A stretch of 64,000 bases of DNA from Candidatus Saccharimonadales bacterium (GCA_041600755.1 JBFIJL010000001.1:56798-120797), one strand, 5' to 3'. Positions 10,967 through 62,618 are shown, counted from the first letter of the stretch. The notes: a model not told the origin generated them from the letters alone. Numbers and translations are program-made.

Positions 10967-12559
10967 TTAGAGGAAGCGTCGTGAAAGAACAATTTTGTGA
11001 GCGAATCCTGCGGCAATTGTAGCTGCTGCAAAGATGCCGATCATATCTGCTGGGCCTGTCTTTGGAAGTTCAGGCGTAACACAGTCAGGGCTGTTCTTTG
11101 GCAAGTTTTCTTTGCCTGGGATTGGGCAGTTCTCAACTTCTTTTTCGGTGTTGATAACAACCTTACAGCTTTCGCCTGACTTGCTTTGCACTGCACCATC
11201 AACATTGAAGTCAACAGTTAGGGATGCAGCATAGTCGCCAGACTTAGCATATGTGTGCTCAACAACTGTCTTGTCGGTCACCATAACTTCAGTCTTGTCG
11301 CCAAAGTCATATCGGTATTGCTTGATAGTCGCACCGCCAGTAGCAGTAGCTTTCGCAGTGAACTGGTATTTTAGGTTTCCTAGTTTCTTTAGTTCAAGCA
11401 AATCACAGCTGTAAGTAGGCGTTACTTCATCACAGTTTTCTTTTGTGACGATAACTGTAGCGTCATCTTCCTGTTGAGTAACATCATCTGCTCGAACTCG
11501 AGCAATGTTCTTGAGCGTAGTGACACACTCTTCGAGCTCGCTTGCCGCTGCAATCTTGGTGTCGAACGTAATGTAGCCATTCGAACCGCTCGTGTATGAA
11601 CCAGCGTTTACGCCGTTTGAGTCAAACAAATCTTCGTCATCAAGTGCAAGTCCGTTTTTGTGAGCTGCGTCTACTAGCTTTACGCTTCCGTCGACAACAT
11701 CAAGGTTCGCAGGAAGCGTATCCTTAATGGTTGTATTGTTCAACTGTGCAGTTCCAACGTTCTTATATGTAATGAGCCACTTGGCTATGTCACCTGGTTT
11801 TGCGTGAGCTGAATCCTGGTATGATCCATCACCAACTTTCACTTTCTTCTCAAATTCAACGGCAGGGGCCTTTACTTTAACCTTGATGTACACGAACGCC
11901 TGGTATTCGAAACAACCTGGCAATACACCATTCAACTGATTGTAGCCAATCGTTGCGCCGTCAGTCACGATGCTATCGCTAAGAGCAAATCCCGTGCCAC
12001 CGTTATGACCAGTTACGAGCGTTGCAGAGCCTGGAATATATTCAAGACTGAAGGCGTTTTCGCCAACAAACTCAGATGTATCAGATACAACTGCAGGGGT
12101 TGCGTTACTTGCAGAGATATAGCTTGTAGCTTTTAGATTCTGTGCTGTTCCTGTAGGGAGCTTAAATCGCACTTTTGCGTCCTTTGCAACAGTAGGTCCG
12201 TCGTAGTTCTCGCCATTCAAGTCCTGGTTGCCGTTGTTGTGAACATACACACGAAGCGTAAGTTCATCTCCAGCGTCAACGCCGCCAAGAACATCCTTAT
12301 AGTTGTCTGCCGCATCGTTCCCAACACCTTCACGAGCATCAAAGAAATGCCGTTCATCACCGTAGTATGGCGTGTTGACGAACGAGTTGAATACGACCTT
12401 GTCGAATCCACCTCGGTCTGTAGTATTATTCCAATCCTTTATAGGGCGTTCTGGGAAGAAGCCGGCAAAAGCAATGGCAGGAACTGCGATTGCAGTTGCA
12501 GCAAAGATTGCAAGTGTTGCCTTTTTGCTGTTAGCCTTGATGTATTGTAGTACTTTCAT
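10967..12559 (-). CDS. Secreted surface protein with LPXTG cell-wall sorting signal
   Basis: N-terminal signal peptide (MKVLQYIKANSKKATLAIFAATAIAVPAIAFA). C-terminal LPKTGP + hydrophobic stretch + RRFL tail = classical sortase substrate. Confidence 0.75.
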   Translation of the reverse strand: MKVLQYIKANSKKATLAIFAATAIAVPAIAFAGFFPERPIKDWNNTTDRGGFDKVVFNSFVNTPYYGDERHFFDAREGVGNDAADNYKDVLGGVDAGDELTLRVYVHNNGNQDLNGENYDGPTVAKDAKVRFKLPTGTAQNLKATSYISASNATPAVVSDTSEFVGENAFSLEYIPGSATLVTGHNGGTGFALSDSIVTDGATIGYNQLNGVLPGCFEYQAFVYIKVKVKAPAVEFEKKVKVGDGSYQDSAHAKPGDIAKWLITYKNVGTAQLNNTTIKDTLPANLDVVDGSVKLVDAAHKNGLALDDEDLFDSNGVNAGSYTSGSNGYITFDTKIAAASELEECVTTLKNIARVRADDVTQQEDDATVIVTKENCDEVTPTYSCDLLELKKLGNLKYQFTAKATATGGATIKQYRYDFGDKTEVMVTDKTVVEHTYAKSGDYAASLTVDFNVDGAVQSKSGESCKVVINTEKEVENCPIPGKENLPKNSPDCVTPELPKTGPADMIGIFAAATIAAGFAHKIVLSRRFL

Positions 12560-12584
12560 GGTTGTCTCCTTTACTTATTCTGAC

Positions 12585-14141
12585 TTAGTCTTCTAGCTCA
12601 ACTTCAATTGGAGCGAGGCCGTTTGGTGCACTCGAGTATCTTCGACGCTGCTCGAATGTGAGTCCTGCAATGCCTCCGGCTGCAATGACTGACATTGGAA
12701 CCGGCACAGTGCCGTCACTTGGTGATTCAGGTGTATTAATTGGCTCATCAGGAGCTTCTGCTTCAGGGATGCTGGTCGTAGTGTTTGGGTTCTCACCTGG
12801 CAAGTAACCATCCTCGTCTTGACCTTCATTATCAGTGTCAGGAACATTCGGATTCTCGCCTGGATCTCCAGGTTCTTGATCCTCATAACCAGGAATTGTA
12901 GGAAGCGGTTTAGGTGTCTTGGGAGTCGTAGTGGTTGTTGTCTCTGGGGTAGTGGTCGAAGTGGTGGTTGTTGTCTCTGGAGCAGTAGTAGACGTGGTTG
13001 GTGGGGTTGTAGTTGGAGGAGGGGTCGTTGTTGTTGGTGGGGTTGTAGTTGTAGGAGTTTCCTCTTCTGGAGTTTCAGGGATTTCAACAGAATCAAACGG
13101 CTGGAAGCCACAGTCTACGCGTGCTGCAATAGTCTGTACATTGCCGTCTTCGTCCAAGAAGCTAATCAAAGCGATTGCGTCATTGGCGCCAACTGCACGG
13201 TCGAGGTCATATGCTAATACGCCGTTTGCGTTATAAGCCATGTTCTTGTAATTTGCGCTATCAGAATTGAGTGTTACAACCCGAATTTCTGTTATATCAG
13301 AATTAAATATACGAGTATCTTCAAGCATAGACTCAGGTACACCGGCGTTCTTCAATGCTTCCTTGAGTACATCGCCTTGGTTCTGCTCATAACCGTTTTG
13401 TGCAGTCAGCATGTTTTGACCCATTTCAATTGCGCCGTTAGTTGTAATTTCTGAACCATTCCATGTTCCACCATTAAGAGATGAACCACTCATTTCGTGC
13501 ACGCCTGGAAGTTCTGCGTCTTTATCGTTTATAAATGTAACGTCGTCCATAGAGAGACCTATCGATTCAAGTTTTTCAATCTGATCAAGTCGCATCTCGG
13601 CACGGTTTCGGTTGGTTAGTTCACCTGATGCTTCAGCTTCGGATGCATCATTGTCGGCTTGTGTAGTCTCGGTGGTCTCTGAAGTAGTGGTGGTTGACCC
13701 ATCAACAGCGCCAACGATTTCACGGTGCGCTGGCTTATCTGCTTCGTTTTTTGCAAAAGCAAAGATTCCAGCAGCAACAACTGCTCCAAGTGCAGTAGCG
13801 GCTATCAATTTTCTGCCTCGACTCCACTTGCCTTCAGGAGCAGCCTCATCGTCAGTAGCTTCATCGTAATCATTCTCGCGACGCTTTTCACGCTCACCGG
13901 CAAACTTGCCTTTTGTCCCTTGTTCAGGCACCAAAATAGGCTCAATTTCTTTTTGATCCTGATCAAAAAGCTTTACTTCATCCTTTTCGACACTACTCTT
14001 CAGCAATGCGCCACTTTCCATAAAAGTAGCAAGCTGCGCTGACATGGCCTGGACCTGTTCTCGAAGTTCAGCTATTTCTGCACGCATCTGGTTAAGTACT
14101 TCAGATTCTGGATACTGTTTTAAAATTTCTGGGTTGCTCAT
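12585..14141 (-). CDS. Membrane-anchored Thr/Pro-rich (mucin-like) surface protein
   Basis: TM helix near residue 115; long TTTTPPTTTTPPPTTTPPTT low-complexity linker encoded by DNA-level tandem repeats at ~12900-13080; C-terminal hydrophobic segment. Confidence 0.55.
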   Translation of the reverse strand: MSNPEILKQYPESEVLNQMRAEIAELREQVQAMSAQLATFMESGALLKSSVEKDEVKLFDQDQKEIEPILVPEQGTKGKFAGEREKRRENDYDEATDDEAAPEGKWSRGRKLIAATALGAVVAAGIFAFAKNEADKPAHREIVGAVDGSTTTTSETTETTQADNDASEAEASGELTNRNRAEMRLDQIEKLESIGLSMDDVTFINDKDAELPGVHEMSGSSLNGGTWNGSEITTNGAIEMGQNMLTAQNGYEQNQGDVLKEALKNAGVPESMLEDTRIFNSDITEIRVVTLNSDSANYKNMAYNANGVLAYDLDRAVGANDAIALISFLDEDGNVQTIAARVDCGFQPFDSVEIPETPEEETPTTTTPPTTTTPPPTTTPPTTSTTAPETTTTTSTTTPETTTTTTPKTPKPLPTIPGYEDQEPGDPGENPNVPDTDNEGQDEDGYLPGENPNTTTSIPEAEAPDEPINTPESPSDGTVPVPMSVIAAGGIAGLTFEQRRRYSSAPNGLAPIEVELED

Positions 14142-14295: not shown

Positions 14296-16512
14296 CTAGG
14301 CTTCTTTTTTGAGTTCTTCGGCGATCTGTTCTAGCTTTTTCTTGGCAAACGTAAAGCCAAAAGTGCTGCCCTTGCCTTCTTCGGTTTCAAAGATTATTGC
14401 ACCGCCTTGAGTCACTACAACCTTCTTGGCCATAAATAGACCAAGCCCAGTCCCGTCTGGCCGAGCTTTGCGTGCATTTCCAGCGCGGAAAAATTTGCTA
14501 AACAGATTATGTCGCTCGGATTTTGGAACACCCATACCGGTGTCTTTTACTGTATATTCGATAGTTTCACCCTTGTCCACCAATCCAACCTCAATTTTTC
14601 CACCAGCTGGTGTGTAGTAGATGGCATTGTCTATAAAGTTCATTATCACCTGGCGAATCTTGGTTTCGTCAATCATGACTGACGGGAAGTTCTTTGGCTT
14701 TTTAAAACTCAGTTTCAAATCGCGAGATTTAGCTGTTGGTTGTAGCTGTTCCACCTCTGTTTCAATCACTTTAGCAAGATCAGTTTCTTTAGGATCAATC
14801 ACGAATTTGCCAGTTTTGAGCCGAGATACGTTCAAGAGGTCGGCAATCAGGTACACCATGCGCTGTGAGCTCAGATACGCCTGTTCTAGCATCTTGTTTT
14901 GCTTGTCGTTCACTTCACCCACATCACCCTCAAGAACCATACTCAAATAGCCCTTGACGCTTGTAAGCGGCGTGCGCAGCTGATGCGACGCCATACTAAT
15001 GAACTCATCCTTAGTCTCATCCATCTGTTTGAGCTTTTCATTGGTCCGCTGAAGCTCTTTTGTGGCCGATTCCACCTTGTCCTGGAGTGTACTGGCAAAT
15101 TTCTCAATTTCCTCGTATCGCAAGGCATTTTGAATGGCAATCACTAGTTCGTTCAATATGATAGTCATCATGCGAATATCCTGCTTGTTGTATGGATTTC
15201 CGCTCTTTTTGGCCCCTAAGATAAGGTAACCTAAGCCTTCGAGGTTGGCTTCGCTCTCTGCTGCAAGCCGTCCGAGTACTGCAACATCATACTTTTGCAT
15301 CATGTGCTTTATTTCGCTAGATTCGTCCATTTCATCCGCAATAAATACATTCATGTTCTGTGAAGGCGTCAACTTACGAATCTTCTCTATATCCTCTTTG
15401 TGAAAGTCCTTCGGAACAGTACCTATGACACGTTGCGGTGAATATGCCGTTTCTTTCAGTCCAAACAGGCTAAACTGACTCTTTAGATTGGTGTCAATAA
15501 TCTCGGCACAGCGTCGAAGCAAAAGCTCGAGGTCGACAGTAGACACCAACTCTTTATTGAGCTGATCCAGAAAAACCTGAGGATCATAAGCATCCCTATA
15601 AAAAACGAAGTTAGTTTTTTTGTCGAAAAACCTCTTGAGTCCCTGAAACGACAAACCGATAAATAGTGCCGAAAGAGCGTAGAACACCTGCTCCGATAGT
15701 TTAATCTCATCCCCTGAAAAAATAACAACCGAAAGAGTCACTACGGTTAGAGAATATACAAGACCAAAGGTTAGTATTGATAAAAGATAGGCAGCTGATC
15801 GTGCAATAACAAGACGAACGTCAAATAAACCTTGTCTAAATAATCCATAAATTGTTAATCCTGTATAGAAAAACGGAGCACAATATCCAATAGCATAAAA
15901 CGTAGTATTGTCTCCAAATGCCAATGGAAGAACTATGATAAAAACTATTGCATGTACAATTGTAAGGGTTAAACCAGCCATAAGTGTAGACACCTGGCTT
16001 TTCAGCTTTTTATCTGCGCCACCTCTTAAAGATTTCGCGTTTTCTATATACACACTTGCGCAGACCAAAAGTGCGAGAACTGCCAGGATGGACGAGCCAG
16101 GCCCAGGTATATATTCTGCATTCCCTTCAAAAACGAACTCTCCAGATACAAATACAGTAGGCGAGGCTGCTATAGTTAATGCGGAAATTCCAAAGACTAT
16201 CTTTTGAAGTCTTTTGAACTGCTTCTTTTCAGGAAAATATAGACTAAAGAGATAGATGAAGAAAACTGACATTCCACCAAACATAAAACCAAGAATATTT
16301 GCAAAGTTAAAAAAATGCAGGTTTGAAACTGTTGCGTACGTATCTACATATAGAAGAAAAACATTAATCAGTGTCCATATGAAAATAGTACTGCACAATG
16401 CAGCAAATACTTTTTGTACACTAGAGTTTGACCGACGCCCTTCCAGCGCCATCCCAAGACTAATAAGAAGCTGGAAGACTGCAATTATCAACAATAGGGG
16501 TACTAAAAACAT
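14296..16512 (-). CDS. Sensor histidine kinase with multi-pass membrane N-terminal sensor region
   Basis: ≥7 predicted TM helices in the N-terminal ~380 aa. HisKA motif SHQLRTPLTSVKGY; HATPase_c (…DNAIYYTPAGG…DTGMGVP…GTGLGLF…). Confidence 0.85.
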   Translation of the reverse strand: MFLVPLLLIIAVFQLLISLGMALEGRRSNSSVQKVFAALCSTIFIWTLINVFLLYVDTYATVSNLHFFNFANILGFMFGGMSVFFIYLFSLYFPEKKQFKRLQKIVFGISALTIAASPTVFVSGEFVFEGNAEYIPGPGSSILAVLALLVCASVYIENAKSLRGGADKKLKSQVSTLMAGLTLTIVHAIVFIIVLPLAFGDNTTFYAIGYCAPFFYTGLTIYGLFRQGLFDVRLVIARSAAYLLSILTFGLVYSLTVVTLSVVIFSGDEIKLSEQVFYALSALFIGLSFQGLKRFFDKKTNFVFYRDAYDPQVFLDQLNKELVSTVDLELLLRRCAEIIDTNLKSQFSLFGLKETAYSPQRVIGTVPKDFHKEDIEKIRKLTPSQNMNVFIADEMDESSEIKHMMQKYDVAVLGRLAAESEANLEGLGYLILGAKKSGNPYNKQDIRMMTIILNELVIAIQNALRYEEIEKFASTLQDKVESATKELQRTNEKLKQMDETKDEFISMASHQLRTPLTSVKGYLSMVLEGDVGEVNDKQNKMLEQAYLSSQRMVYLIADLLNVSRLKTGKFVIDPKETDLAKVIETEVEQLQPTAKSRDLKLSFKKPKNFPSVMIDETKIRQVIMNFIDNAIYYTPAGGKIEVGLVDKGETIEYTVKDTGMGVPKSERHNLFSKFFRAGNARKARPDGTGLGLFMAKKVVVTQGGAIIFETEEGKGSTFGFTFAKKKLEQIAEELKKEA

Positions 16513-16552
16513 AACTACTTATGAGTATACATCCATGTCATATTAGACAAAA

Positions 16553-17380
16553 CTAAAGTTCATAGGTGGGCGCTGCAAACAAAGCCATATCATTGAATAC
16601 CTTTACATTATTGGGTGTTGTGGGTATTGATACGGGGCTATACTTGTGGTCAAATCCAAGCGTACCGTCAGTGTCGATAGTTGGCGTCTTGAGATCCTCG
16701 CGGCCAGCTACGGGCTCGTATTCAAGGCCAATCGCCCCCAATGAATGTACAGCCGGTTCGTTAAGATGAGCGAAGACTGCTGCTCGACCATCGGCTACTC
16801 CAGACTTTTCGATTACCTGGAATAATGCAATATATCCTAAATCTGAAACTCTTAGTCCGGTTTCTGTCTCAGACTTTTTCACCCTAAAGTTACTTTCAAC
16901 CGCTATGCATCTAGACAGGTCAACACCTCTGCTTGAGTAATACTCATGGACTTCATCCACAGTCAATCCCTGTCCGGAATCAATCAAATCATCAACGAGT
17001 GCTATACCTATCTCGTTTGAGTCACTATCTTCGACGTCTTCTTGTGACTGAGTTAGGACTTTAGAAGTCAGCCTGAATGCGTGAACAATCCCACGAGATT
17101 CTTCGCGCACGTCTACTAAAGCCAGAAACTTTGATTGATCTTCAAAATGCTCCATAACAGACGGCATTTCCGGGAATCTCTCAGCCTCTAGTGTTCTTAT
17201 CAGATTTGCATATGGCGTATCCTGACTTATCCATACGGCATTAATGGTCTTGGGATCATTTTCAGTGAATGAGTCTATCTCATCCACAAGAAGTTGTTCA
17301 AGGCTATTGAACTGCACTTCGCCTAACTTATAGTCCAGCTCAAAACCTTCTGCCGTGATTTCATTATTTGCTCTCATCAT
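16553..17380 (-). CDS. Hypothetical protein (acidic, 275 aa)
   Basis: No recognised motifs; stop/start overlap with the downstream gene at 17380. Confidence 0.4.
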   Translation of the reverse strand: MMRANNEITAEGFELDYKLGEVQFNSLEQLLVDEIDSFTENDPKTINAVWISQDTPYANLIRTLEAERFPEMPSVMEHFEDQSKFLALVDVREESRGIVHAFRLTSKVLTQSQEDVEDSDSNEIGIALVDDLIDSGQGLTVDEVHEYYSSRGVDLSRCIAVESNFRVKKSETETGLRVSDLGYIALFQVIEKSGVADGRAAVFAHLNEPAVHSLGAIGLEYEPVAGREDLKTPTIDTDGTLGFDHKYSPVSIPTTPNNVKVFNDMALFAAPTYEL

Positions 17381-18015
17381 TACTCCTCGTCCTTGACTAA
17401 ATTGTTTTTAGCTTGCATTTTCCGAATAAGCTTAGAAGCGCCAAATCTAGCACCCACTAAAGCAAATATTCCTGCGCCTATGTGTTCCGGTTCTGGCACC
17501 TCGATACCCTTGGCCATGAAATATCCCTGTACTGCGCAAAAGCCACTCAAACCCACTGCGCTCCTAGCCCCGTATCTTCGATTTTCTGCTTCTGTGCGGT
17601 TTGGGTTTTCCCTGTCAATAAGTAGCATACTGATCGCAGTCCCACCAACTAAGGCAGCTGCCCCTTTAGTGATTGAACTTGTTTTTGCATCTTTAGATAT
17701 TCCAACTTTTTCAAGAAGATTATTAGCTTTATCAAGACTCTTTTTTGCAACATTACTATCAAGTGCTCGAGCAGATGCAAAGCCTGCGGCTCCCTCTATG
17801 GCGAATGTTGCTGCGCCATAGGCACCTGCAGAGATAATCGGATTTCCATATGCTGCTTGCGCTGCACCAAATACACCAAAACGCATTGCTTCATTAGCAA
17901 ACGTCACCTCCGCAGCTATCACTAGTCCGCTAATTGCATCAAGCGCCTTGCTTCTTTCAGACTTCAGTTCAAAATTCTCTGAACCAGACTCAAGATCATA
18001 ATTAACATCAACCAT
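17380..18015 (-). CDS. Hypothetical Gly/Ala-rich membrane protein
   Basis: GxxxG/A-rich hydrophobic segments (FGVFGAAQAAYGNPIISAGAYGAATFAIEGAAGFASA); glycine-zipper-like. Confidence 0.4.
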   Translation of the reverse strand: MVDVNYDLESGSENFELKSERSKALDAISGLVIAAEVTFANEAMRFGVFGAAQAAYGNPIISAGAYGAATFAIEGAAGFASARALDSNVAKKSLDKANNLLEKVGISKDAKTSSITKGAAALVGGTAISMLLIDRENPNRTEAENRRYGARSAVGLSGFCAVQGYFMAKGIEVPEPEHIGAGIFALVGARFGASKLIRKMQAKNNLVKDEE

Positions 18016-18527
18016 TATTTATCTCCGATTAAATGCGCAGCATTCTGCCAGTCACTTGCTTGGAAAACAGCAACAACCATTGCGCACACTGGATGGTGTT
18101 TGCAGGTTTTACCTACGACTTTCATGTTAATTTCACCGAAATCAACGTTTCGAGTAGCCATCAGCGCCTCTAAGCTTTGTCGAATATCGCCTCTTACAGA
18201 TGACTCGCTATTGCCTTCATGCTCTACAAATAGACCCTTTTTGGATCCTTTTTCTTGCACCCAGCCAATGCCAGCCCATGCCTCTTCGTTGGGCTTTTCA
18301 ACTCGCTCTTCAGCCATGACAACATAAAGACGATCGCCCCAGCCACCTGGCATAATTTCGGCAGGGATTGGACCATGTTCATGAACCACAATATTAGTGT
18401 TTGGGGGAACTACTGAACTAAGTTTTAGTAAATTAAAATTAGCAATCCCCGCATCGTTCAATGCTGCGTCAAATGCTGCTAGTTTAGTTGGCCCCGACCC
18501 GATTCCTGGCGCTACATGAATATCCAT
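18015..18527 (-). CDS. pdaD: Pyruvoyl-dependent arginine decarboxylase (PdaD family)
   Basis: MDIHVAPGIGSGPTKLAAFDAALNDAGIANFNLLKLSSVVPP contains the conserved self-cleavage Ser-Ser context of PdaD proenzymes; size ~170 aa. Start moved to the internal Met preceded by AAGGAA. Confidence 0.65.
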   Translation of the reverse strand: MDIHVAPGIGSGPTKLAAFDAALNDAGIANFNLLKLSSVVPPNTNIVVHEHGPIPAEIMPGGWGDRLYVVMAEERVEKPNEEAWAGIGWVQEKGSKKGLFVEHEGNSESSVRGDIRQSLEALMATRNVDFGEINMKVVGKTCKHHPVCAMVVAVFQASDWQNAAHLIGDK

Positions 18528-18667
18528 ACTAATAATTCCTTTCAAATAAAAAACAGCATGTCGTTGCCTCAAATTGAGGACTGACATGCTGTTTTGTTTA
18601 CTAATGTACTGCCTTGCATGATACCACAAGCGGTGTATAATGTCAACTATATAATTAAAACAGAAAA

Positions 18668-19072
18668 TTGCAAACTATGAAAATTGCTATCATTGAAGAT
18701 GACCGACCTATAGCTAGTATGTATCAGCAAAAGCTGAAACTGGCGAACCATCAGGTGCGCTGCGCTTTTGACGGCGAGGAAGGATTGACCATGCTTGAGG
18801 ACTTCCAGCCAGACGTTGCGCTCGTTGACCTCAAAATGCCAAAAATGACCGGCGATGCAATGCTCGAAATTATCCGCAAGACTGAGTGGGGTGCAAGTCT
18901 ACGCGTAATCATCCTTACCAACATCAGCAAAGATGAAGCTCCCAACAACTTACGGTTCATGAGCATTGACAGGTACATCGTTAAGGCACACTACACGCCA
19001 AACCAGGTGCTGGCTGTAGTTAACGAAGTGCTCGGCATTAAGCCACAAAACTTATCCACCAAAACTCAGTAA
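18668..19072 (+). CDS. Stand-alone response-regulator receiver protein (CheY-like), paralog 1 of 4
   Basis: IAIIEDD...VALVDLKMP...VIILTN...YIVKA: acidic pocket, phospho-Asp, T and K positions conserved; no output domain. Confidence 0.8.
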   Translation: MQTMKIAIIEDDRPIASMYQQKLKLANHQVRCAFDGEEGLTMLEDFQPDVALVDLKMPKMTGDAMLEIIRKTEWGASLRVIILTNISKDEAPNNLRFMSIDRYIVKAHYTPNQVLAVVNEVLGIKPQNLSTKTQ

Positions 19073-19198
19073 AAAACCCAACAAAACCAACTTGTGCATC
19101 CATAAGCGCTTTGGTACTGTATAGTTTCCGCGCGAATTTAAACAGAGATTTTTACGAAGGAAAACTAACAACATAAACGACAGAGTTTTGGAGGATTT

Positions 19199-19576
19199 TT
19201 GGTGCAAAAAATAGCCATCGTGCAGCATGATGATGCAATACGCAACATGTACAAGCTCAAGTTTGAGCAAGGACGATTTAGGGTCAAAACCGCCCGCTGC
19301 GGTCAAACTGCATTGGACCTACTGCGTGATTTTTGGCCGGACGTCGTTCTTATGGACATGCACCTGCCATTTTTGAGTGGTCTTGAGGCTGTAGAAAGAC
19401 TCCAAAATTATCCGTTATTTTCTCGGCCTAAAATTATTTTGACTTCAAATCTTGACGAAGAACAGGCGGCCAAAAAGTTTGGACACCTTGGAATTGATGG
19501 CTACATCCTAAAAGCGAACCACACTCCTTCTGAAATTCTTGGTATAGTACAAGGTATGATTGGAGCAACAGCTTGA
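19199..19576 (+). CDS. Stand-alone receiver-domain protein, paralog 2 (divergent acidic pocket QHDD)
   Basis: IAIVQHDD...VVLMDMHLP...IILTSN...YILKA. 4-nt overlap with the next paralog (translational coupling). Confidence 0.75.
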   Translation: MVQKIAIVQHDDAIRNMYKLKFEQGRFRVKTARCGQTALDLLRDFWPDVVLMDMHLPFLSGLEAVERLQNYPLFSRPKIILTSNLDEEQAAKKFGHLGIDGYILKANHTPSEILGIVQGMIGATA

Positions 19577-19938
19577 AAAAAATTATCCTCGTCGAAGATG
19601 ATGAGATGTTGGCAGAAATATACCAAACTAGATTGCAACTTGCAGACTTTGAATGCAAACGAGCCAATAATGGACTGGCTGGACTGGAACTCATCCAAAA
19701 AGAACTACCTGACCTCGTATTACTTGATCTGATGATGCCGATAATGTCAGGCGATCAAGTGCTTGAAGCAATTCGTACCAGCGACTGGGGAAAAGACATG
19801 AAAGTCATAATCCTTACCAATATTAGTGAGGCAGAAGCACCAGACATTATTAACGAGCTCGGTATCGAACGCTACATCGTAAAAGCCAATATTGTCCACG
19901 ATCAACTGGTTGAGGCTGTTAACGAAGTCCTAAAATAG
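19573..19938 (+). CDS. Stand-alone receiver-domain protein, paralog 3
   Basis: IILVEDD...LVLLDLMMP...VIILTN...YIVKA. Confidence 0.8.
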   Translation: MKKIILVEDDEMLAEIYQTRLQLADFECKRANNGLAGLELIQKELPDLVLLDLMMPIMSGDQVLEAIRTSDWGKDMKVIILTNISEAEAPDIINELGIERYIVKANIVHDQLVEAVNEVLK

Positions 19939-19982
19939 TTCAGGCGCTTGAGTTTATCCTTGTGTTGCCCTAGAATCTAAAC

Positions 19983-20348
19983 ATGGCAACTAAGATAGCA
20001 ATTATTGAAGACGACCAAGCTATCTCCCAGATGTACCGCATCAAGTTCGAAGCCGAGGGTTACGAAGTAGAAACTGCGGAAAACGGAAAACTGGGCCTCT
20101 TATTGATTGAAAAAATGAACCCAGACATTATTTTGCTGGATCTTATGATGCCAGAGATGACTGGCGATGAAATGCTAGAAAAGCTTCGGGCTAGCGATTT
20201 CGGCAAAGACACTAAAGTCGTTATTCTTACCAACATGGGCGAACAAGAAGTGCCTCAGAAAGTCAAAGACCTTGGCGTGGTTGACGTCATCCTAAAAGCC
20301 GACATGACCCCTCGGCAAGTAGCCGAACTTGTAAAAGCCAATCTATAA
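19983..20348 (+). CDS. Stand-alone receiver-domain protein, paralog 4
   Basis: IAIIEDD...IILLDLMMP...VVILTN...VILKA. Confidence 0.8.
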   Translation: MATKIAIIEDDQAISQMYRIKFEAEGYEVETAENGKLGLLLIEKMNPDIILLDLMMPEMTGDEMLEKLRASDFGKDTKVVILTNMGEQEVPQKVKDLGVVDVILKADMTPRQVAELVKANL

Positions 20349-20467
20349 GCAGGCTTGATTTGCATAATCTCAATTTTACTGTATAGTTTATTTTCATGTA
20401 TTACTTAGTTATCAATAACACCAAGAAGAAGCTCCTGCCCTAGCCAGAGCTGTTTTTGATGCACTTC

Positions 20468-20497
20468 AAACCCCGCTCCGGCGGGGTTCTTTTTTTG
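20468..20497 (+). terminator. Rho-independent terminator after the receiver-protein array
   Basis: aaccccgc-tccg-gcggggtt followed by ctttttttg. Confidence 0.6.
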
Positions 20498-20589: not shown

Positions 20590-20979
20590 ATGAGAACTTT
20601 AGAACGACAATCAAATCAATTACATCTTCCATCGTGGATGCTCGAAGCAAGAATGAGACCTGAGCCACTCCGCGTCCATGGTAGGCCATTTGTATTCTGG
20701 TCTGCAAACGGCGAGGAAGAAGATCTTTACAACAACAATTGTGAAGTCATAGAGGTGTCCATCAGAGTCGGCAGAATTGCGATTCAAACCGTTTCCGCTA
20801 TTGGTCACAGAGGTATCGATCCTGCCTTTACTGGATCATACCCAGTAATCATAGGGTCAGACGAAGCAACCAACGAGTATATATTTGGTGTACGGCCAGA
20901 GCTTGAATTTCGGGTAGAGGCATTTTCTGACCTCGTACCAGAAGAATTTCAGATGACTGACTGGGGGCAGACATGTTAA
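20590..20979 (+). CDS. Hypothetical protein, first gene of a three-gene operon
   Basis: 129 aa; stop overlaps the start of the next ORF by 7 nt; no recognised motif. Confidence 0.45.
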   Translation: MRTLERQSNQLHLPSWMLEARMRPEPLRVHGRPFVFWSANGEEEDLYNNNCEVIEVSIRVGRIAIQTVSAIGHRGIDPAFTGSYPVIIGSDEATNEYIFGVRPELEFRVEAFSDLVPEEFQMTDWGQTC

Positions 20980-21719
20980 ATGCAGCAACTCAAGCCCATT
21001 TTGAGGCAATTCTATCAAATCCAGAGCGACTTACAGTCGTATCTGAACGAATCGCTTCATCTGTCAGTGCGGCACATGAGGATGGCAACTTCATTCTTGA
21101 ACGTGACGCTTCACAAATTTCACATCAACTTCGTGGCGGTATGGCGACTTTTTTACCAGCGACGACACCCCAGGGAACAGACAGCTTTCTGTACTACATG
21201 GGCGCCCAGTACCTACCCACCCAAAACTACCACAGTGAATATCCTGTAATAGAAGGTGGAACACTGATTGCTAACTCCGACAAAGAACTGCTCGCCTGCT
21301 CGCGTGGTCGCGCGTCTGACGTCGTTCAAAACCTTGGCAGACTGGCATTTATCCCAAGCAATGGGCTCATCATCTACACATCAAGGTCTACCCCAAGCGT
21401 GCGAGCACTTACCGGCGGCGGCGCAAAACTACTTCAGCGTAGAGACTTTCCAATGCTTGATGCACTCACTTGCGATTCTGCATGCCTACCCAGCCCCCAA
21501 GGACCCATCGCTACCATTGGAACTATTGCTGTCTTTGCGGACGGCAGCGACCGCATTGAATGCCCAGTCAATGAAGCATATGCCGACGGGGCACTAGCTG
21601 ATGCCTGCTTTTTGTTAACAAATGACTGTGACCGAGCTTACGAAATGGAATCCCGCCTTTCTGAAGACTTTAATGGCTCGGCTCAAACGGTCCGCGCAAC
21701 ACTCATAGGAGGTGCGTAA
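20973..21719 (+). CDS. Hypothetical protein, second gene of the operon
   Basis: 248 aa; overlaps the downstream gene by 8 nt; Cys-rich C-terminal third; no recognised family. Confidence 0.45.
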   Translation: MLNAATQAHFEAILSNPERLTVVSERIASSVSAAHEDGNFILERDASQISHQLRGGMATFLPATTPQGTDSFLYYMGAQYLPTQNYHSEYPVIEGGTLIANSDKELLACSRGRASDVVQNLGRLAFIPSNGLIIYTSRSTPSVRALTGGGAKLLQRRDFPMLDALTCDSACLPSPQGPIATIGTIAVFADGSDRIECPVNEAYADGALADACFLLTNDCDRAYEMESRLSEDFNGSAQTVRATLIGGA

Positions 21720-22677
21720 CATGCAACATATAGACGACATACTGTTATACAACAACCCGGCTGGTCAACCGGCCTTGTGTCCGGTACTTCAGATTGGGAC
21801 AGGAGCACCACACACCGTACTGGTTGCATTGCAGCATGGCTGGGAGCTCATTGGACTCGATACAGCCCTGCAAACTGTTGCGAACGCCCCAGAAGTTCAA
21901 GGAACAATTACGCTGCTAGCCGCAGCCAATCCACTTGGGTATCTAGATCGCAGTCGATTTGTCGCCGCTCAGCAAGATCCGATGTCTGGAATTACACAAA
22001 ACCTAAATAGAGTGCACCCCGGCAATACAACTGGCACAATTTCAGAACAATCGGCGGCGGCTATTGATGCCTATATTTCCGGCTTGCAACCTGATTTTGT
22101 TCTAGATTTACACGCCTATGCATCTCAATCAGTACCGCACGCAATCCTAGACCCTTGCGATGGCGAACTTCAACATGTCATGCAACGCTACCTTCAAACT
22201 GCGCAGATTGCCTGGTACCGTGAATTTGAAGGCGAAACACTTCAGGAACAAGTACTCACGAGTGCACTAAGCGCAGTCTGGCTAAACAGAGGCGTGCCAG
22301 CATTAACAATCGAGCTCGGGCCGCTAGACAGCTTTAGCGTCGAAGAATCTCAAGCTGCTCAGCAAACACTACGAAATATGCTCATAAGTATCGGCGCAAT
22401 GAATGGTGCAATCGCACCAACAACGTATTTGGATACTTCACAGCCATTTAGTAGGAACGAAATTCGATACACAGGAGCAGCTGGAGGCTATATCCGATAT
22501 CTCGTCCCTATCCTCACGCAAGTTCAGGAAGGTGAGGCTGTGGCTGAAATTATCGCACTTAATGGCAACATTGTAGATATAATGTATGCGGAAAATGATG
22601 GAGTGGTATTTATTTGGCACGATGAGTACCGCGTCATGAGTGGCTCGGTAATTGGAATTTTACTCACCACTCCCTAG
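21712..22677 (+). CDS. Succinylglutamate desuccinylase/aspartoacylase (AstE/AspA) family zinc deacylase-like protein
   Basis: HGWE (family HGNE zinc site), ...NLNRVHPG... (family DLNRxFPG), DLHAY (second His ligand); 321 aa. Confidence 0.5.
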   Translation: MRNMQHIDDILLYNNPAGQPALCPVLQIGTGAPHTVLVALQHGWELIGLDTALQTVANAPEVQGTITLLAAANPLGYLDRSRFVAAQQDPMSGITQNLNRVHPGNTTGTISEQSAAAIDAYISGLQPDFVLDLHAYASQSVPHAILDPCDGELQHVMQRYLQTAQIAWYREFEGETLQEQVLTSALSAVWLNRGVPALTIELGPLDSFSVEESQAAQQTLRNMLISIGAMNGAIAPTTYLDTSQPFSRNEIRYTGAAGGYIRYLVPILTQVQEGEAVAEIIALNGNIVDIMYAENDGVVFIWHDEYRVMSGSVIGILLTTP

Positions 22678-22706: not shown

Positions 22707-24029
22707 ATGAAGATAGCAATTCTGGGATTTGGAGCCCAAGGCAGATCAGCTTATGAGTACTGGAACACTCCAGACAACCAACTGACAATCTGCGATACAA
22801 ATACTGATTTAGAAGCACCTGGTGAGGCTTCAACAAAACTTGGTCCAAATTATCTCAATGATTTAGGCCAGTTTGACATGCTCATCAGAACACCAATATT
22901 ACACCCTCGAGATATCACATCCGCTAATCCAGAATCACCTGACATACTAGCTAAAGTCTGGTCCAATACCAATGAATTCATGAAAGTCTGTCCAACAAGA
23001 AATATCATTGGAGTCACGGGCACCAAAGGCAAAGGCACTACTAGCACCCTCATTACAAAAATGCTCGAAGCCGCAGGCAAAACTGTGCATCTTGGCGGCA
23101 ATATAGGTATTCCGCCGCTCGAAATGCTGCATAGCGACATTCAACCAGATGACTGGGTGGTGCTTGAACTGGCCAACTTCCAGCTCATAGATCTGCAAAT
23201 CTCACCGCACATTGCAGTGTGTCTCATGGTAGAGCCAGAGCACATGGACTGGCACGCAGATTTTAAAGAGTACAAAGCCGCCAAGAAGCAGCTTTTTGCG
23301 CATCAATCTACAAAAGACACTGCTATTTTCTACGCAGATAATGAAACATCGAGAGAGATTGCGAGTCAGTCGCAATCTATGTTGATTCCATACTTTGCAA
23401 AACCCGGCGCAGTTGTTGAAGATGAAACGATAAAAATTGACGGAAATGAAATTTGTTCAGTACATGAACTAAAGCTACTAGGGAAGCACAACTGGCAAAA
23501 TGTCTGCGCTGCGGTAACTGCATTTTGGCAAATATCTCAGGACACCCAAGCTATACGATGGACTATAGACACCTTCTCTGGTCTTGAACATCGCCTGGAG
23601 CATGTAAGCACTATTGAAAAAGTAGATTACTACGATGATTCCTTTGGCACCACCCCAGAAACAGCAGTTGTCGCAATTGAGGCATTCGAACAACCTAAAA
23701 TTGTCATTCTTGGTGGATCAGATAAGCATGCTTCATATGACAAGTTGGCAAGAACGGTCGTAAACCACAATGTTAGATCGGTGATAGTAATTGGAGACAC
23801 GGCTTCAGAAATATCTACAGCCTTGAAGAATGAAGGCTTTTCATCCATAGAATCCGGTCCCCAAACTATGCCAGAAATTGTTGCCTTGGCCAGATCACTT
23901 GCTCAACCCGGAGATGTGGTACTTCTTTCGACTGGCTGTGCAAGCTTTGGTCTATTCAAGAACTACAAGGATCGAGGCGATCAATTTACGCAAGCTGTTC
24001 GATCACTCTCGCAAGCTGACGCACGATAG
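22707..24029 (+). CDS. murD: UDP-N-acetylmuramoylalanine--D-glutamate ligase
   Basis: Mur ligase P-loop IGVTGTKGKGTTSTLI; N-terminal Rossmann MKIAILGFGAQGRSAYEYW typical of MurD; 440 aa. Confidence 0.75.
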   Translation: MKIAILGFGAQGRSAYEYWNTPDNQLTICDTNTDLEAPGEASTKLGPNYLNDLGQFDMLIRTPILHPRDITSANPESPDILAKVWSNTNEFMKVCPTRNIIGVTGTKGKGTTSTLITKMLEAAGKTVHLGGNIGIPPLEMLHSDIQPDDWVVLELANFQLIDLQISPHIAVCLMVEPEHMDWHADFKEYKAAKKQLFAHQSTKDTAIFYADNETSREIASQSQSMLIPYFAKPGAVVEDETIKIDGNEICSVHELKLLGKHNWQNVCAAVTAFWQISQDTQAIRWTIDTFSGLEHRLEHVSTIEKVDYYDDSFGTTPETAVVAIEAFEQPKIVILGGSDKHASYDKLARTVVNHNVRSVIVIGDTASEISTALKNEGFSSIESGPQTMPEIVALARSLAQPGDVVLLSTGCASFGLFKNYKDRGDQFTQAVRSLSQADAR

Positions 24030-37208: not shown

Positions 37209-38729
37209 ATGATGAACACCAACGAAAAAATAGGCAATCTTATTTACCAACTACGACAAGAGCGCGGTTTAACTCAAGCAGAGTTTGCGCGCAAGATGGG
37301 CACCAGCCAAAGTGCCATAAACCGCATCGAAAAAGGTAGACAAAATCTCAGCCTAGAAACACTTGGACGAATAAGTGACGTATTACAGAAACCAATAATC
37401 ACTATTTCAGGCCAGTCAATAAACTTTCGGGTTGAAGGTGGACACGAGCTTTCAGGCACCATAGAAACAAAAAGCGCAAAGAATAGCGCAGTTGCTTTGC
37501 TGTGCGCAAGCTTACTAAACAAAGGGACGACAAAGCTTATTAACGTTCCTCGCATTGAGGAAGTAAATCGTATAGTTGAAGTGCTTCAGAGTATTGGAGT
37601 GAGCATAAAATGGTTCAACGGAAACTCTCTCGAGATTAAGCCGCCAGAAACACTGGACCTTAGCAACATTGACGCACAGTCGGCACGACGCACCAGAAGC
37701 GTAATCATGCTTGCAGGACCCCTGCTGCACGAATTCAAAGAATTCAAAATACCATATGCCGGTGGATGCAAGCTCGGCAAACGATCTGTTCAGGCCCACC
37801 TATACGCTCTTGAGGACTTTGGGGTTGAAACAGACGTTGTAGTTGGTCACTACAAAATGACTGTCAAAGACCCCTCGGCTGCCGATGTCGTTCTATACGA
37901 AATGGGTGAAACACCGACTGAGAACATCTTGATGGCTGCGGCTCGCGCAACCGGCACATCAACTATCAAAATGGCGTCGTCAAACTATAACATTCAAGAC
38001 CTTTGTTATTTCCTTAAGAAATTAGGCGTGAAGATTCAGGGCATTGGCACATCAAATCTTACTATTACTGGTGTTCCAGAAATCAGAAAGAATATTTCAT
38101 ACCATGTATGTGAGGACCCGCTCGATTCAATGTTCTTCATATCTGCGGCAGTTGCAACTAATTCGCAAATTACCATTACCAACACACCAACAGATTTTCT
38201 TGAAGTTGAGCTTATGAAGCTCGATAAAATGGGACTTGAAATCAAACGAGAGAACACTCACACCAGCCCCAATGGCTGGACCCACCTTGAGGACATAACA
38301 ATCCACAAGCACGATGGAAAATTAAAAGCTCCTGTAGAAAAATTACATCCTTTGCCTTTCCCAGGATTACTCCCAGACAACTTGCCGTTCTTTGTGCCAA
38401 TAGCAGCTGTAGCCAAAGGCCAGACATTGCTGCACGATTGGATGTACGAAAACCGAGCCATATACTTTACTGAACTCAGTCGACTTGGGGCAAACGTGGA
38501 GCTAATCGATGCACACCGAGTTTACGTCAAAGGCGCCACCAAGTTCTCACCGGCCGACATTACATGCCCACCCGCACTTCGTCCTGCTGCAATCCTACTC
38601 ATCGGCATGCTTGCAGCCGACGGTACAAGCAAGCTACGTAATATCTACTCTATTGCGCGCGGTTATGAAAACATAGCTGAACGCCTCAATAGCATCGGTG
38701 CAAAAGTCGAAGTTCTCAACGAACTTTAA
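37209..38729 (+). CDS. murA: UDP-N-acetylglucosamine 1-carboxyvinyltransferase fused to an N-terminal XRE-type HTH domain
   Basis: Residues ~5-70: LIYQLRQERGLTQAEFARKMGTSQSAINRIEKGRQNLSLETL (HTH_XRE). Remainder is EPT-fold MurA (KSAKNSAVALLCASLL...; total 506 aa vs ~420 for MurA alone). Confidence 0.7.
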   Translation: MMNTNEKIGNLIYQLRQERGLTQAEFARKMGTSQSAINRIEKGRQNLSLETLGRISDVLQKPIITISGQSINFRVEGGHELSGTIETKSAKNSAVALLCASLLNKGTTKLINVPRIEEVNRIVEVLQSIGVSIKWFNGNSLEIKPPETLDLSNIDAQSARRTRSVIMLAGPLLHEFKEFKIPYAGGCKLGKRSVQAHLYALEDFGVETDVVVGHYKMTVKDPSAADVVLYEMGETPTENILMAAARATGTSTIKMASSNYNIQDLCYFLKKLGVKIQGIGTSNLTITGVPEIRKNISYHVCEDPLDSMFFISAAVATNSQITITNTPTDFLEVELMKLDKMGLEIKRENTHTSPNGWTHLEDITIHKHDGKLKAPVEKLHPLPFPGLLPDNLPFFVPIAAVAKGQTLLHDWMYENRAIYFTELSRLGANVELIDAHRVYVKGATKFSPADITCPPALRPAAILLIGMLAADGTSKLRNIYSIARGYENIAERLNSIGAKVEVLNEL

Positions 38730-40429: not shown

Positions 40430-41080
40430 TCAGATGATAATTTGCAGCATACCCAATAAAGCAACAACTGTCAGAGGCACGAAAAGATTGTCCGAACCCC
40501 AAGGTGCAATGTTCTCGATATACGCCGAGACAAACGGAATAATGAATAACGCGGGTAGTGATATAGGTGTAAAGCCGACCTCGCCTCGAACAAACAGCCA
40601 AACTAGAATGTTGAATGACATCACAATAAAGGTGGCAGTACCAATGACCGACTTCTTATTCCATAACACTTTGTAAGTATTTTTGCTTCCGTAGCGCGTG
40701 CCGATAACCGCCGCAAGACCATCGGCTAAAGCTATGTGCAAAACTGCAGCCGTAAATACGAGCTTACTTGGCTGCAGGGTAGCCAGGAGTCCAATCGTCG
40801 CGGGCGCCACTAGATCTCCCCAGCTTTTGCGCCTAACCGAATAAACGCTATGAAAAATACCAGAAAAGCGCATAAATATAATGAAAACTACCGCCAAGAA
40901 GGCCACAAACTGAATCTGTCGCCAGGTCATGAAAAATGGCCAAAACGCCCCAAAACTTCCGATTAGAATGTGCATGAACTTACGAGAGCCTTCACCTTTG
41001 AGTATCTTTTTCTTCCACAGGTACTCATTCAGTAGAAGTGTCGCAAATACAAACGTGAGCGTGCTGAATACGACAATCAT
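40430..41080 (-). CDS. Integral membrane protein of the CTP-dependent polyprenol/dolichol kinase-like (DUF92/CdsA-like) superfamily
   Basis: Multi-TM; ...RKFMHILIGSFGAFW... and ...VLHIALADGLAAVIGTRYGS... resemble the cytidylyltransferase-like family. Confidence 0.4.
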   Translation of the reverse strand: MIVVFSTLTFVFATLLLNEYLWKKKILKGEGSRKFMHILIGSFGAFWPFFMTWRQIQFVAFLAVVFIIFMRFSGIFHSVYSVRRKSWGDLVAPATIGLLATLQPSKLVFTAAVLHIALADGLAAVIGTRYGSKNTYKVLWNKKSVIGTATFIVMSFNILVWLFVRGEVGFTPISLPALFIIPFVSAYIENIAPWGSDNLFVPLTVVALLGMLQIII

Positions 41081-41436
41081 GGCTACAGTATAGCAACCAT
41101 GGCAAATTGTTGCATTTCTTTAGATTGGAAATATTTCACAATCATGCCATTGCGTCGATGCTTCTGCCAATAGGCGATGGGCTTTGTGAATAAATTGCAC
41201 CAGATGTATTTACATTGCTCGACGATGGACTTGCTTATGTCAAAGATGGCGACGAAGTTTTTCAAAAACCAGGTGGCTCCGCCAGCATGGCCCCGATTCC
41301 GCCCAACCTACTAGATGCGGTAATTGAGTCCGCAGACGAATACCCTGGCGAGTGTATTTTTATAGAGTCTGGGTAGATTTAGGGTTAAACCATGAAGCCG
41401 TAAACACATTCCTCAGTCTGTGAGATAATTATCTGG

Positions 41437-41985
41437 ATGAACAAATACCAACTCTCCAACAAAGAACTTCCTGCAAGCTTTCGTATTGATAGAGCCAGGG
41501 AGAGTGACTTCTCAGAATTCATGCAAGTATATGAAAAGTCTTTTAGAGATGCATACGAAACTAAAGAAGTTCCAATTAGCCAACTTCATCATAGTCACTT
41601 TATTAAATCTAACATCTCCGAACAGATTCACAATGCATTTTTTGGAGTCAATTCAATTAGTGATTTTGCATATGTCAATGATCGTGTAATCGGTGGTATT
41701 TCTACAACCTGGATTCCTAAAATGCAGGCTGTGGAGCTGCACGGGCTATACATTGACCCTGCCTATCAAAAGCTTGGAGTCGGGACGCAGTTACTGATTC
41801 GTCAATTGAGAATTAATAGCTCCAGACGAATATATCTTGATGTTGCAAAATCATTTAAATTCCAGCAGATCATGTACGAAAACTATGGATTTAAAAAACA
41901 AATCATTGGGGGAAATAAATCATTTTCATGGCCTTCTTGGTCGAGCGAATACAAAATAAAGACTATTAGGATGTGGAAGAAATGA
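41437..41985 (+). CDS. GNAT family N-acetyltransferase
   Basis: Motif A ...LYIDPAYQKLGVGTQLL... Confidence 0.65.
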   Translation: MNKYQLSNKELPASFRIDRARESDFSEFMQVYEKSFRDAYETKEVPISQLHHSHFIKSNISEQIHNAFFGVNSISDFAYVNDRVIGGISTTWIPKMQAVELHGLYIDPAYQKLGVGTQLLIRQLRINSSRRIYLDVAKSFKFQQIMYENYGFKKQIIGGNKSFSWPSWSSEYKIKTIRMWKK

Positions 41986-42737: not shown

Positions 42738-42786
42738 TTTTAGTTTTGCCGTAATCATGTAAAAGTCGCTAACCATCACTCATTAA

Positions 42787-42803
42787 TTGGTCGGGGTGAG
42801 AGG
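42787..42803 (-). repeat. Partial direct copy (17 nt) of the tRNA-Pro 3' end (outer copy)
   Basis: ttggtcggggtgagagg is identical to 47667-47683 (the same sequence at the tRNA-Pro 3' end). Confidence 0.7.
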
Positions 42804-42950
42804 GATCGCTAGAGTACTCACACTTCAGCTTCCCTGCGCTCGAGGCCAAGCAAGGAAAACTCAATATGCCACAGGCATATTTCGCCTGTCGGTTCGAGTC
42901 CCTAAACTCAAAGCAAATAAAAATACACAGACATATGCCTGTGTATTTTT
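42804..42950 (-). repeat. Ancestral tRNA-Pro downstream segment, now displaced; its internal ~50 nt are homologous to tmRNA downstream segment 70-184
   Basis: ctcgaggccaagcaaggaaaactcaatatgccacaggcatatttcgcc matches ctcgcaggacaagcaaggaaaactcaaatagccgctggctattttcgcc at 112-160. Palindromic terminator acacagacatatgcctgtgt + T-run abuts the 10-nt tRNA-end copy at 42951-42960. Confidence 0.5.
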
Positions 42951-45803: not shown

Positions 45804-45850
45804 AGTTTTATTATATACCAGAAAACCGTTGAACCTATTTACAAGCTATA

Positions 45851-62616: not shown

Positions 62617-62618
62617 TC

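Follow-up and report, generated by a model that had tools for sequence, protein, structure and literature searches.

The 64,000-nucleotide (nt) stretch of a Candidatus Saccharimonadales bacterium analysed here (GCA_041600755.1 JBFIJL010000001.1:56798-120797; hereafter the window) codes for a membrane-bound sensor histidine kinase and, divergently from it, for four consecutive proteins, R1 to R4, each made up of a single CheY-like receiver domain. Saccharibacteria are very small, live attached to other bacterial cells and have genomes of about 1 Mb with only a handful of signalling genes. The array represents an enlarged form of a conserved Saccharibacteria module, consisting of a kinase and single-domain receivers and related to the HK853/RR468 pair. 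With moderate confidence, we read it as a lineage-specific expansion of a core two-component module of these bacteria, which would form a branched pathway from one kinase/phosphatase to several receivers acting via protein contacts. A listing of the open reading frames (ORFs) together with a Pfam scan gives the following genes, with lengths in amino acids (aa); all four receiver genes are complete:

14296-16512, minus strand: sensor histidine kinase, 738 aa; 7-9 transmembrane (TM) segments within residues 1-290, then a cytoplasmic linker/sensor region, HisKA and HATPase_c
16553-17380, minus strand: unk275, predicted soluble GNAT-fold protein of the LuxI/FeeM-like (Acetyltransf_5) group, directly upstream of the kinase
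17380-18015, minus strand: mem211, Gly/Ala-rich protein of 211 aa with weakly hydrophobic helices; its ends abut pdaD and unk275
18015-18527, minus strand: pdaD, predicted pyruvoyl-dependent arginine decarboxylase, opening the kinase operon
18677-19072, plus strand: R1, stand-alone receiver, 131 aa; canonical E-D/D/T/K, Tyr at K-3
19202-19576, plus strand: R2, atypical stand-alone receiver, 124 aa; Q-H for the acidic pair, with phospho-Asp, Thr and Lys retained
19573-19938, plus strand: R3, stand-alone receiver, 121 aa; canonical residues; its TTG start overlaps the R2 stop
19983-20348, plus strand: R4, stand-alone receiver, 121 aa; the universal and most conserved copy (RR468-like)
22707-24029, plus strand: murD, distal to R4 here and directly downstream of the R4-type receiver in most relatives

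A sequence-only reading of this DNA had recognised a kinase with four tandem receiver-only paralogs, and all of these genes are present, with Pfam matches above the gathering score. It had further placed a multi-TM kinase about 2 kb from the receivers with pdaD between them, which holds for the polytopic kinase and for pdaD but has to be amended in that the kinase lies on the opposite strand and is divergent from the receivers.

Gene starts were refined by reading the DNA and from the gene calls on an identical Logan contig (L001). R1 likely starts at the ATG at 18677 and R2 likely at the GTG at 19202, behind the Shine-Dalgarno sequence GGAGG, while R4 starts at the ATG at 19983; the receivers, previously put at ~121-134 aa, are indeed receiver-only but span 121-131 aa after this correction. 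The NCBI protein for R2 (P0121) begins at an internal Met and, at 109 aa, loses strand beta1 along with the QHDD motif; the Shine-Dalgarno site and the orthologues favour the longer version. R2 and R3 overlap by 4 nt (TTGA, 19573-19576), with a GGAG 8 nt upstream of the R3 start, and the overlap is kept in two related loci, L082 and L083, in line with the translational coupling proposed for this pair. That the array could be a frameshifted multi-domain regulator is ruled out, as each ORF is an intact, full receiver with its own start and the four genes are separate in L082 and L083 too. On the other strand, pdaD probably starts at 18527, since a promoter-like site at 18646-18618 falls inside the longer ORF and the gene call in L001 is likewise of 170 aa. 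From their single strand and their abutting or short gene boundaries, pdaD, mem211, unk275 and the kinase form one operon, with the kinase last, which diverges from R1.

Domains and active sites of the receivers

All four receivers match Response_reg (PF00072) alone (E-values of 7.8e-16, 8.8e-18, 8.3e-20 and 2.6e-22 for R1 to R4), with 58.7, 64.9, 71.5 and 79.5 bits where the gathering score is 30.2, and the matches cover the whole (beta-alpha)5 domain. They align without large gaps, are 28-46% identical to one another within the genome and have ILTN and [IV][VL]KA motifs in common, so the mutual similarity seen earlier stands. The helix alpha1 residues I/L14, M/I17, Y18, K/R21 and F/L22 are also common to all four.

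R1, R3 and R4 have the E-D/D/T/K quintet, as do 99 of the 106 related receivers. The modified QHDD pocket that the sequence-only reading had pointed out in R2 is real: Q-H, at positions which align with D9 and D10 of RR468, occurs in R2 and in both of its orthologues, and these constitute the only group among the 106 receivers with a degenerate acidic pair. Such orthologues were found in only two other genomes, those of L082 and L083. The acceptor Asp53, the Thr (in T-[SA]-N) and the Lys are retained. In CheY-type receivers the acidic pair binds the Mg2+ required for phosphoryl transfer; hence, with Q-H in its place, the phospho-chemistry of R2 is probably impaired, and the protein, a receiver fold by profile match, is not a canonical phospho-receiver. 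An exhaustive search with an R2 profile was dominated by multi-receiver proteins, its informative yield being a few small R2-like representatives; two of these lack the second acid (DND, EGD) as well as the Thr, which fits relaxed phospho-chemistry in the lineage. HP1043, FrzS and ChxR, atypical or pseudo-receivers without metal-binding acids, offer a parallel in that R2 is likewise without both acids, a state conserved in its orthologues. Unlike them, R2 keeps the acceptor Asp, Thr and Lys and is a stand-alone protein inside an array of canonical paralogues.

Conservation of the module and age of the paralogues

A scan of one genome per species with the kinase gave 80 loci, mostly labelled Saccharibacteria or Saccharimonadales, with the remaining labels generic or other (Patescibacteria group, Nevskiaceae, Parcubacteria); ORFs were called in all of them and searched with the window proteins and a receiver profile. 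The conserved order is FolD, MurI, MurD, receiver(s), a variable stretch, kinase, LPXTG/PKD surface protein and glycolytic genes. Of 54 loci in which the kinase is full-length and its upstream flank spans at least 7 kb, 51 have divergent stand-alone receivers (one in 27, two in 18 and three in 6), at a median of 2.5 kb from the kinase. The gap between murD and the receiver nearest to it has a median of 31 nt and is at most 100 nt in 30 of 41 loci. On this synteny, the kinase and the stand-alone receiver form a conserved Saccharibacteria module whose ancestral state is a single receiver beside murD. Four receivers occur only in the window, in L082 and in L083, the last two found via R2 homologues; L082 also has the same pdaD-mem211 cassette and the kinase. 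The four-receiver locus is a moderately unusual form of a known system in which the usual receiver number is one or two. Full-text literature searches on two-component signalling in Saccharibacteria and Patescibacteria found no description of the module.

An evidently orthologous module is found in the cultivated relative Southlakia epibionticum, where tRNA-Glu, SEML1_0678 (a 7TM kinase with PF16927, HisKA and HATPase_c), one gene, SEML1_0680 (a 372-bp response regulator) and FolD follow one another (PMC10633639). It differs from the window in having one receiver, a methyltransferase-like cassette gene and no murD beside the receiver. The genome table of this organism contains five kinases and six response regulators, of which four are receiver-only and two OmpR-type. 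For comparison, Patescibacteria have on average about 5 two-component genes and 0.7 motility and chemotaxis genes per genome (PMC7137472), and sediment-attached ultra-small genomes carry CheY-like genes at about twice the frequency (PMC9938205).

Counterparts across the three four-receiver genomes are 88-93% identical for R4, 78-82% for R3, 62-69% for R1 and 56-70% for R2, with nonsynonymous divergence (dN) of 0.06-0.34 and saturated synonymous divergence (dS). In neighbour-joining trees each window receiver clusters with its positional counterparts and not with its neighbours, with bootstrap values of 90.5-97% for the four orthologue trios (91.5% for that of R1 with L082 and L083) and 76.5% for the wider R3 group. 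The R1 orthologue group extends to about 25 related loci, and the clade consensuses carry distinct, strongly conserved signatures, for example LAEIYQTRL in R3 and RFL.VDRYIVKAHHTP in R1. Over 38 genomes, R4 orthologues have a median identity of 76% to the window copy, against 46% for the kinase and 55% for MurD of the same genomes. The identities, the dN values with saturated dS, the trio bootstraps and the conservation of R4 together show that the four receivers are old duplicates, all under purifying selection, and that R4 is the ancestral and most constrained member. A recent tandem duplication, which had been left as an alternative to an ancient one, is ruled out by the within-genome identities and by positional trios at 90-97% bootstrap.

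The array might instead serve as a phosphate sink, R4 alone signalling and R1-R3 competing for phosphoryl groups in the manner of Sinorhizobium CheY1, by which the response would be shortened or tuned. Several receiver-only proteins with a common docking-face pattern beside one kinase, the faster evolution of R1-R3 relative to R4 and a copy number that varies among lineages are what such a function would predict. However, each paralogue has its own conserved surface signature, which suggests specific partners rather than passive sinks, and R2 is without the residues for efficient phosphate acceptance; we consider this account quite unlikely.

Some neighbouring features deserve mention in their own right. 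Between R4 and murD lies a three-gene insertion (20590-22677, plus strand) coding for unknown proteins of 129 aa and 248 aa and an AstE/AspA-family deacylase-like protein; these genes are absent from all 82 related loci, and the local GC content is higher (0.475 vs about 0.43). Downstream of the kinase, 10967-14141 (minus strand) specifies a PKD/DUF7619 surface protein ending in LPKTG and a TM anchor, and a Thr/Pro-rich protein of 518 aa; the LPXTG/PKD protein is conserved beside the kinase in 54 loci. Two sortase genes (52098-52916 and 54676-55734, minus strand) lie 40 kb away from the kinase. At 37209-38729 (plus strand) a Cro/C1-type HTH_3 domain is fused to a MurA-like enzyme of the EPSP_synthase family, the same fusion as in SEML1_0687, which is essential in S. 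epibionticum. The region 40430-47744 is poor in GC (0.41-0.42) and ends at a tRNA-Pro. It codes for GNATs, DUF218, a beta-lactamase-family protein and, in what seem to be two pieces (ORFs 45851-46306 and 46438-47679), a serine recombinase; the region may be the remnant of an integrated element.

Kinase chemistry and receiver output

The kinase matches HisKA (2.9e-16) and HATPase_c (5.6e-23) in Pfam, and hydropathy gives at least 7 strong TM segments within residues 1-264. Its full-length homologues, of 700-750 aa, number in the hundreds, and kinase homologues carry PF16927 HisKA_7TM. The phospho-His, the N-box Asn residues, the G1, F and G2 boxes and the DHp helix are invariant across 27 homologues. 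The best PDB match of the kinase core is HK853 of Thermotoga maritima (E = 7e-37), and the best matches of R4 are RR468 chains (E = 2e-16 to 5e-16), with Spo0F also among the best; by these matches, the kinase core and R4 most resemble the two members of one cognate pair. The HK853-RR468 system has the same domain types, a receiver without an output domain and the H-box context SH.LRTPLT. Its genes lie in one operon, with one receiver and a small sensor region, whereas the system described here has 7-9 TM segments and four receivers that are transcribed divergently, with a variable cassette in between.

A further difference from HK853 lies next to the phosphorylated residue. H509 is situated in SHQLRTP, with Gln at H+1 (Q510, codon 14984-14986), and this motif is found without exception in 120 database homologues and 82 locus copies (202 in total), while three unrelated kinases in the same loci read SHELRTP or AHELRNP. 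In terms of the H-E/D-x-x-T/N motif, all 202 family members keep the Thr at H+4 and lack the acid at H+1; on alignment, the H+1 Glu of HK853 (E261) is replaced by Gln and its N-box Lys by Tyr. In CrdS, HK853, HK1190 and HK4262 the H+1 acid is needed solely for the kinase activity and the H+4 T/N solely for the phosphatase activity, and CrdS E372Q and, by phenotype, NtrB E140Q are kinase-deficient but phosphatase-competent (PMC3510030; Willett and Kirby). The family hence naturally bears a kinase-deficient substitution with the phosphatase Thr kept, raising the possibility that the sensor is phosphatase-biased, which may be a serious rival to the kinase-driven pathway or a modifier of it. As a rival, it holds that the sensor is mainly a signal-controlled phosphatase and that the receivers are phosphorylated by some other kinase or by small phosphodonors such as acetyl or carbamoyl phosphate. 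Set against this, the invariance of the phospho-His and of the N-box Asn, G1-, F- and G2-box residues is as expected if ATP is still used, and some active HisKA kinases are without the acid, such as PhoQ, which has Ser in its place. A phosphatase-dominant sensor is, in our estimate, unlikely, though it is the rival that we take most seriously.

By Pfam, essentially all ORFs of at least 110 aa in the 64 kb are devoid of any further receiver, kinase, Hpt, che gene, OmpR/NarL-type or receiver-linked output domain; nor was a Spo0B-like domain or a CheA, CheW, MCP or DivL-type partner detected in the window. This agrees with the sequence-only reading that the cluster has no DNA-binding output, and output via protein-protein contact, as also suggested there, is the natural reading of such a cluster. 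A chemotaxis CheY set is ruled out, as the window has no che genes. The receiver-only proteins of the DivK, Spo0F and CheY1/CheY2 systems act via protein contacts or as sinks, and one kinase can serve several receivers. The window system resembles Caulobacter DivJ/PleC-DivK, Bacillus Spo0F and Sinorhizobium CheY1/CheY2 in its receiver-only proteins, but it is unlike them in that their Hpt/Spo0B, CheA/CheW/MCP or DivL partners have no counterpart in the window and that its receivers form one tandem paralogue array. The earlier suggestion of a phosphorelay has fared less well. A His-Asp-His-Asp relay would run from a Spo0F-like receiver through an Hpt/Spo0B-like protein to a terminal regulator elsewhere, and the rank of Spo0F among the matches of R4 and the want of an output domain in the cluster are consistent with it. 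It is, however, opposed by the lack of an Hpt/Spo0B-like domain in the 64 kb, by the lack of PF01627 (Hpt) in the Pfam-annotated genome table of S. epibionticum and by an ancestral state of one kinase and one receiver, and we regard it as highly improbable.

At the end of the window, 60796-63833 (plus strand) codes for PilC and for PilB, a type IV pilus ATPase that carries MshEN at its N-terminus; MshEN is the c-di-GMP-binding domain in MshE. Pili are a plausible target of CheY-like proteins.

Variable cassette, regulatory DNA and proposed pathway

Across the loci, the co-oriented stretch upstream of the kinase is made up of variable enzymes: LuxI/FeeM-like GNATs, ThiF-like, methyltransferase-like and MprF-C-like proteins, and pdaD with mem211. 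In the window, the pdaD product matches PF01862 (7.6e-27; 94.6 bits against a cut-off of 22.7) and has the LSSV motif, as read from the sequence, with scores below the cut-offs of the NCBIfam equivalog models (68.9 vs 106.95 and 59.1 vs 207). The two genes following it had been taken for unknown membrane genes. For mem211 this is plausible, if weakly so, on hydropathy; it has no Pfam or NCBIfam match, its single-sequence AlphaFold2 model is unusable (pLDDT 42), and about 10 related loci also have it together with pdaD. The gene at 16553-17380 (unk275), on the other hand, specifies a predicted soluble GNAT-fold protein. It has no Pfam match (E <= 0.01; including PF00765 and PF13444) and no NCBIfam match, a profile search of PDB sequences gave none, and it has no BLASTP similarity to the representative of a GNAT cluster, c11. 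Its AlphaFold2 model, built with 17 homologues, is confident (pLDDT 89.8), and the top nine Foldseek matches are acyl-homoserine lactone (AHL) synthases (BjaI/MesI/RpaI/EsaI; E = 1.4e-5 to 4.8e-4, probability 1.0), albeit with modest TM scores of 0.37-0.53; other GNAT enzymes including FeeM follow. In hhalign, unk275 aligns to c11, which is positive for Acetyltransf_5 (PF13444), with a probability of 97.1%, and c11 to cluster c28 with 97.6%. From the model, we predict that unk275 has a GNAT-derived fold of the LuxI/FeeM-like subgroup and is an acyltransferase.

The kinase itself varies along with this stretch. Pairwise identity averages 21% in its TM part and 49% in its cytoplasmic part. When pairs of kinases are compared at matched MurD identity, those sharing a cassette type are 28-36% identical N-terminally and those with different cassettes ~20%, with similar C-terminal identities. 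The N-terminal identity hardly follows MurD identity (r = 0.10), against r = 0.44 for the C-terminal identity. None of 1000 permutations of the cassette labels reached the observed difference, in a test that is liberal as it ignores relatedness. Thus, the sensor region and the cassette type are coupled, the simplest reading of which is that the kinase senses the cassette product.

Comparable arrangements are the polymorphic signal-synthesis and polytopic-kinase loci agrBDCA and comQXPA and the LuxI-like/kinase pairs proposed for the Candidate Phyla Radiation (CPR). In common with these, the locus has an enzyme cassette co-transcribed with a multi-pass kinase, a sensor part that diverges with cassette type next to a conserved kinase core, and a LuxI/FeeM-like fold adjoining the kinase. 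LuxI-like genes beside sensor kinases in CPR, including one Saccharibacterium, have been put forward as candidate quorum-sensing systems (PMC7567580; Bernard et al. 2020). In contrast to agrBDCA and comQXPA, no peptide precursor and no AgrB or ComQ homologue was identified at this locus, the kinase is HisKA and not HPK10, and the regulators are receiver-only rather than LytTR or NarL DNA binders. A more speculative proposal, to which we assign a low probability, is a polymorphic quorum-sensing-like or host-cue circuit peculiar to Saccharibacteria, in which a lineage-specific signal from a swappable cassette is read by the matching TM region of a phosphatase-biased kinase that sets the phosphorylation of CheY-like hubs steering envelope growth (compare the murD linkage) or a switch between attached and free states. 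The predicted arginine decarboxylase and LuxI/FeeM-like acyltransferase would then possibly make an N-acylated amine, and R4 would be the universal hub, R1-R3 lineage additions and R2 a non-phosphorylatable modulator, all acting by direct protein binding.

The DNA around the two transcription units contains several elements which may bear on their control:

18618-18646, minus strand: promoter-like site of the pdaD-kinase operon, TTGACA-17-TATCAT, TG-extended and near-consensus
18550-18595, minus strand: hairpin with a trailing U-run in the operon leader, after the promoter and ahead of the pdaD start; attenuator-like, with a 13-bp perfect inverted repeat
19101-19127, plus strand: promoter-like motif (…GCTTTGGTACTGTATAGTTT) before R2-R3, conserved in the window, L082 and L083
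20363-20497, plus strand: second motif copy (20363-20389), then a structured unit of ~100 nt and a terminator; 27-nt direct repeat; z -3.1

The pdaD-R1 intergenic region carries back-to-back promoter-like elements, the -35 of the pdaD-side site overlapping TGTATAAT (18635-18642, plus strand) upstream of R1, and has 86% mean column identity to L082, with the synonymous sites of the flanking receiver genes saturated. The leader hairpin (-24.3 kcal/mol, z -4.0) has arms that differ in L082 yet stay complementary, and these compensatory differences suggest attenuation or a protein-binding RNA element; at the gathering threshold, Rfam finds tRNAs and a tmRNA alone, and nothing in the leaders. Upstream of R2, a 21-nt motif containing TGTATAGT is conserved in all three four-receiver genomes. 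Promoters are predicted at 18635 and 19120, and a further promoter-like site, TTGAGT-17-TAGAAT, lies at 19948-19976, shortly before the start of R4. The two copies of the 27-nt motif are 78% identical, with 13 nt exact; this 13-mer, TACTGTATAGTTT, shows no significant enrichment in the window, where it matches 4 times with 1.5 expected and 6 of 100 shuffles reach 4. What makes it noteworthy is solely that two copies lie close together here and that it is conserved in L082 and L083. The strong terminator at 20469-20488, with its T-run, is the sole terminator-like site after the receiver array, and the ~100-nt unit that it closes (20394-20497) could be a small RNA or encode a leaderless peptide of 15 aa (MYYLVINNTKKKLLP).

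In the pathway that we favour, a polytopic membrane sensor with an HK853-like HisKA/ATPase core would be made last from an operon opened by a small-molecule enzyme cassette, consisting of PdaD (arginine to agmatine), a Gly/Ala-rich, putatively membrane-associated protein and a predicted LuxI/FeeM-like acyltransferase. The TM sensor region would most likely respond to the cassette product or to a linked envelope state, and the cytoplasmic core would set the phosphorylation of the RR468-like receivers encoded divergently. Among these, R4 would be the ancestral cognate partner, with R1, R3 and R2 as old duplicates kept by selection. Their common alpha1 docking face suggests that all four probably use the same kinase in a one-to-many branched pathway, and, as none has an output domain, they would act by binding other proteins. 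R2 is most likely poorly or not phosphorylatable, and would be a modulator or competitor. The family-wide Gln in place of the kinase-essential acid beside the phospho-His may in turn give the sensor a bias toward phosphatase activity.

Several points weigh against this pathway. The pairing of kinase and receivers is argued from synteny and by analogy with HK853/RR468, and the hydrophobic pattern of alpha1 is widespread among many receivers. The exact-membership bootstraps of the large R1 and R4 clades are 9% and 7.5%, so that these larger groupings rely on consensus signatures and gene position, and the cassette-sensor covariation was controlled for phylogeny solely via MurD or C-terminal identity. 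The Gln and Tyr substitutions relative to HK853 may make for a weak kinase. In co-culture, transposon sequencing (Tn-seq) of S. epibionticum found SEML1_0678 and SEML1_0680 non-essential at all three time points (PMC10633639). The four-receiver array of L083 lies on a contig without the kinase. Furthermore, two of the three other receiver-only regulators of S. epibionticum have a different partner kinase each and the third has none next to it, so that other kinases may exist elsewhere in the source genome of the window as well. These last two observations, along with the 2 kb, opposite strands and variable cassette that separate the genes, would also suit receivers that merely keep a conserved gene order with the kinase and whose own kinases are elsewhere. 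We judge this very unlikely in view of a linkage that 51 of 54 species-level genomes maintain although the genes in between have turned over heavily, the match of the pair to HK853/RR468 and the conserved divergent promoter region.

If none of the steps proposed for the branched pathway holds, one is left with an ordinary two-component system that has additional CheY-like paralogues. The regulation of attachment, of growth on the host and of differentiation in Saccharibacteria has been stated to be unknown (PMC11665869). Against this background, the module is found in nearly every genome examined and its receiver is more conserved than MurD, which is essential in S. epibionticum by Tn-seq. This near-universality and receiver conservation make it likely to be a central signalling route of these bacteria, though one that is dispensable in laboratory co-culture. 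The invariant Gln, a sensor region that diverges with its cassette and an array of four receivers, one of them degenerate, offer entry points for its study in the genetically tractable S. epibionticum.

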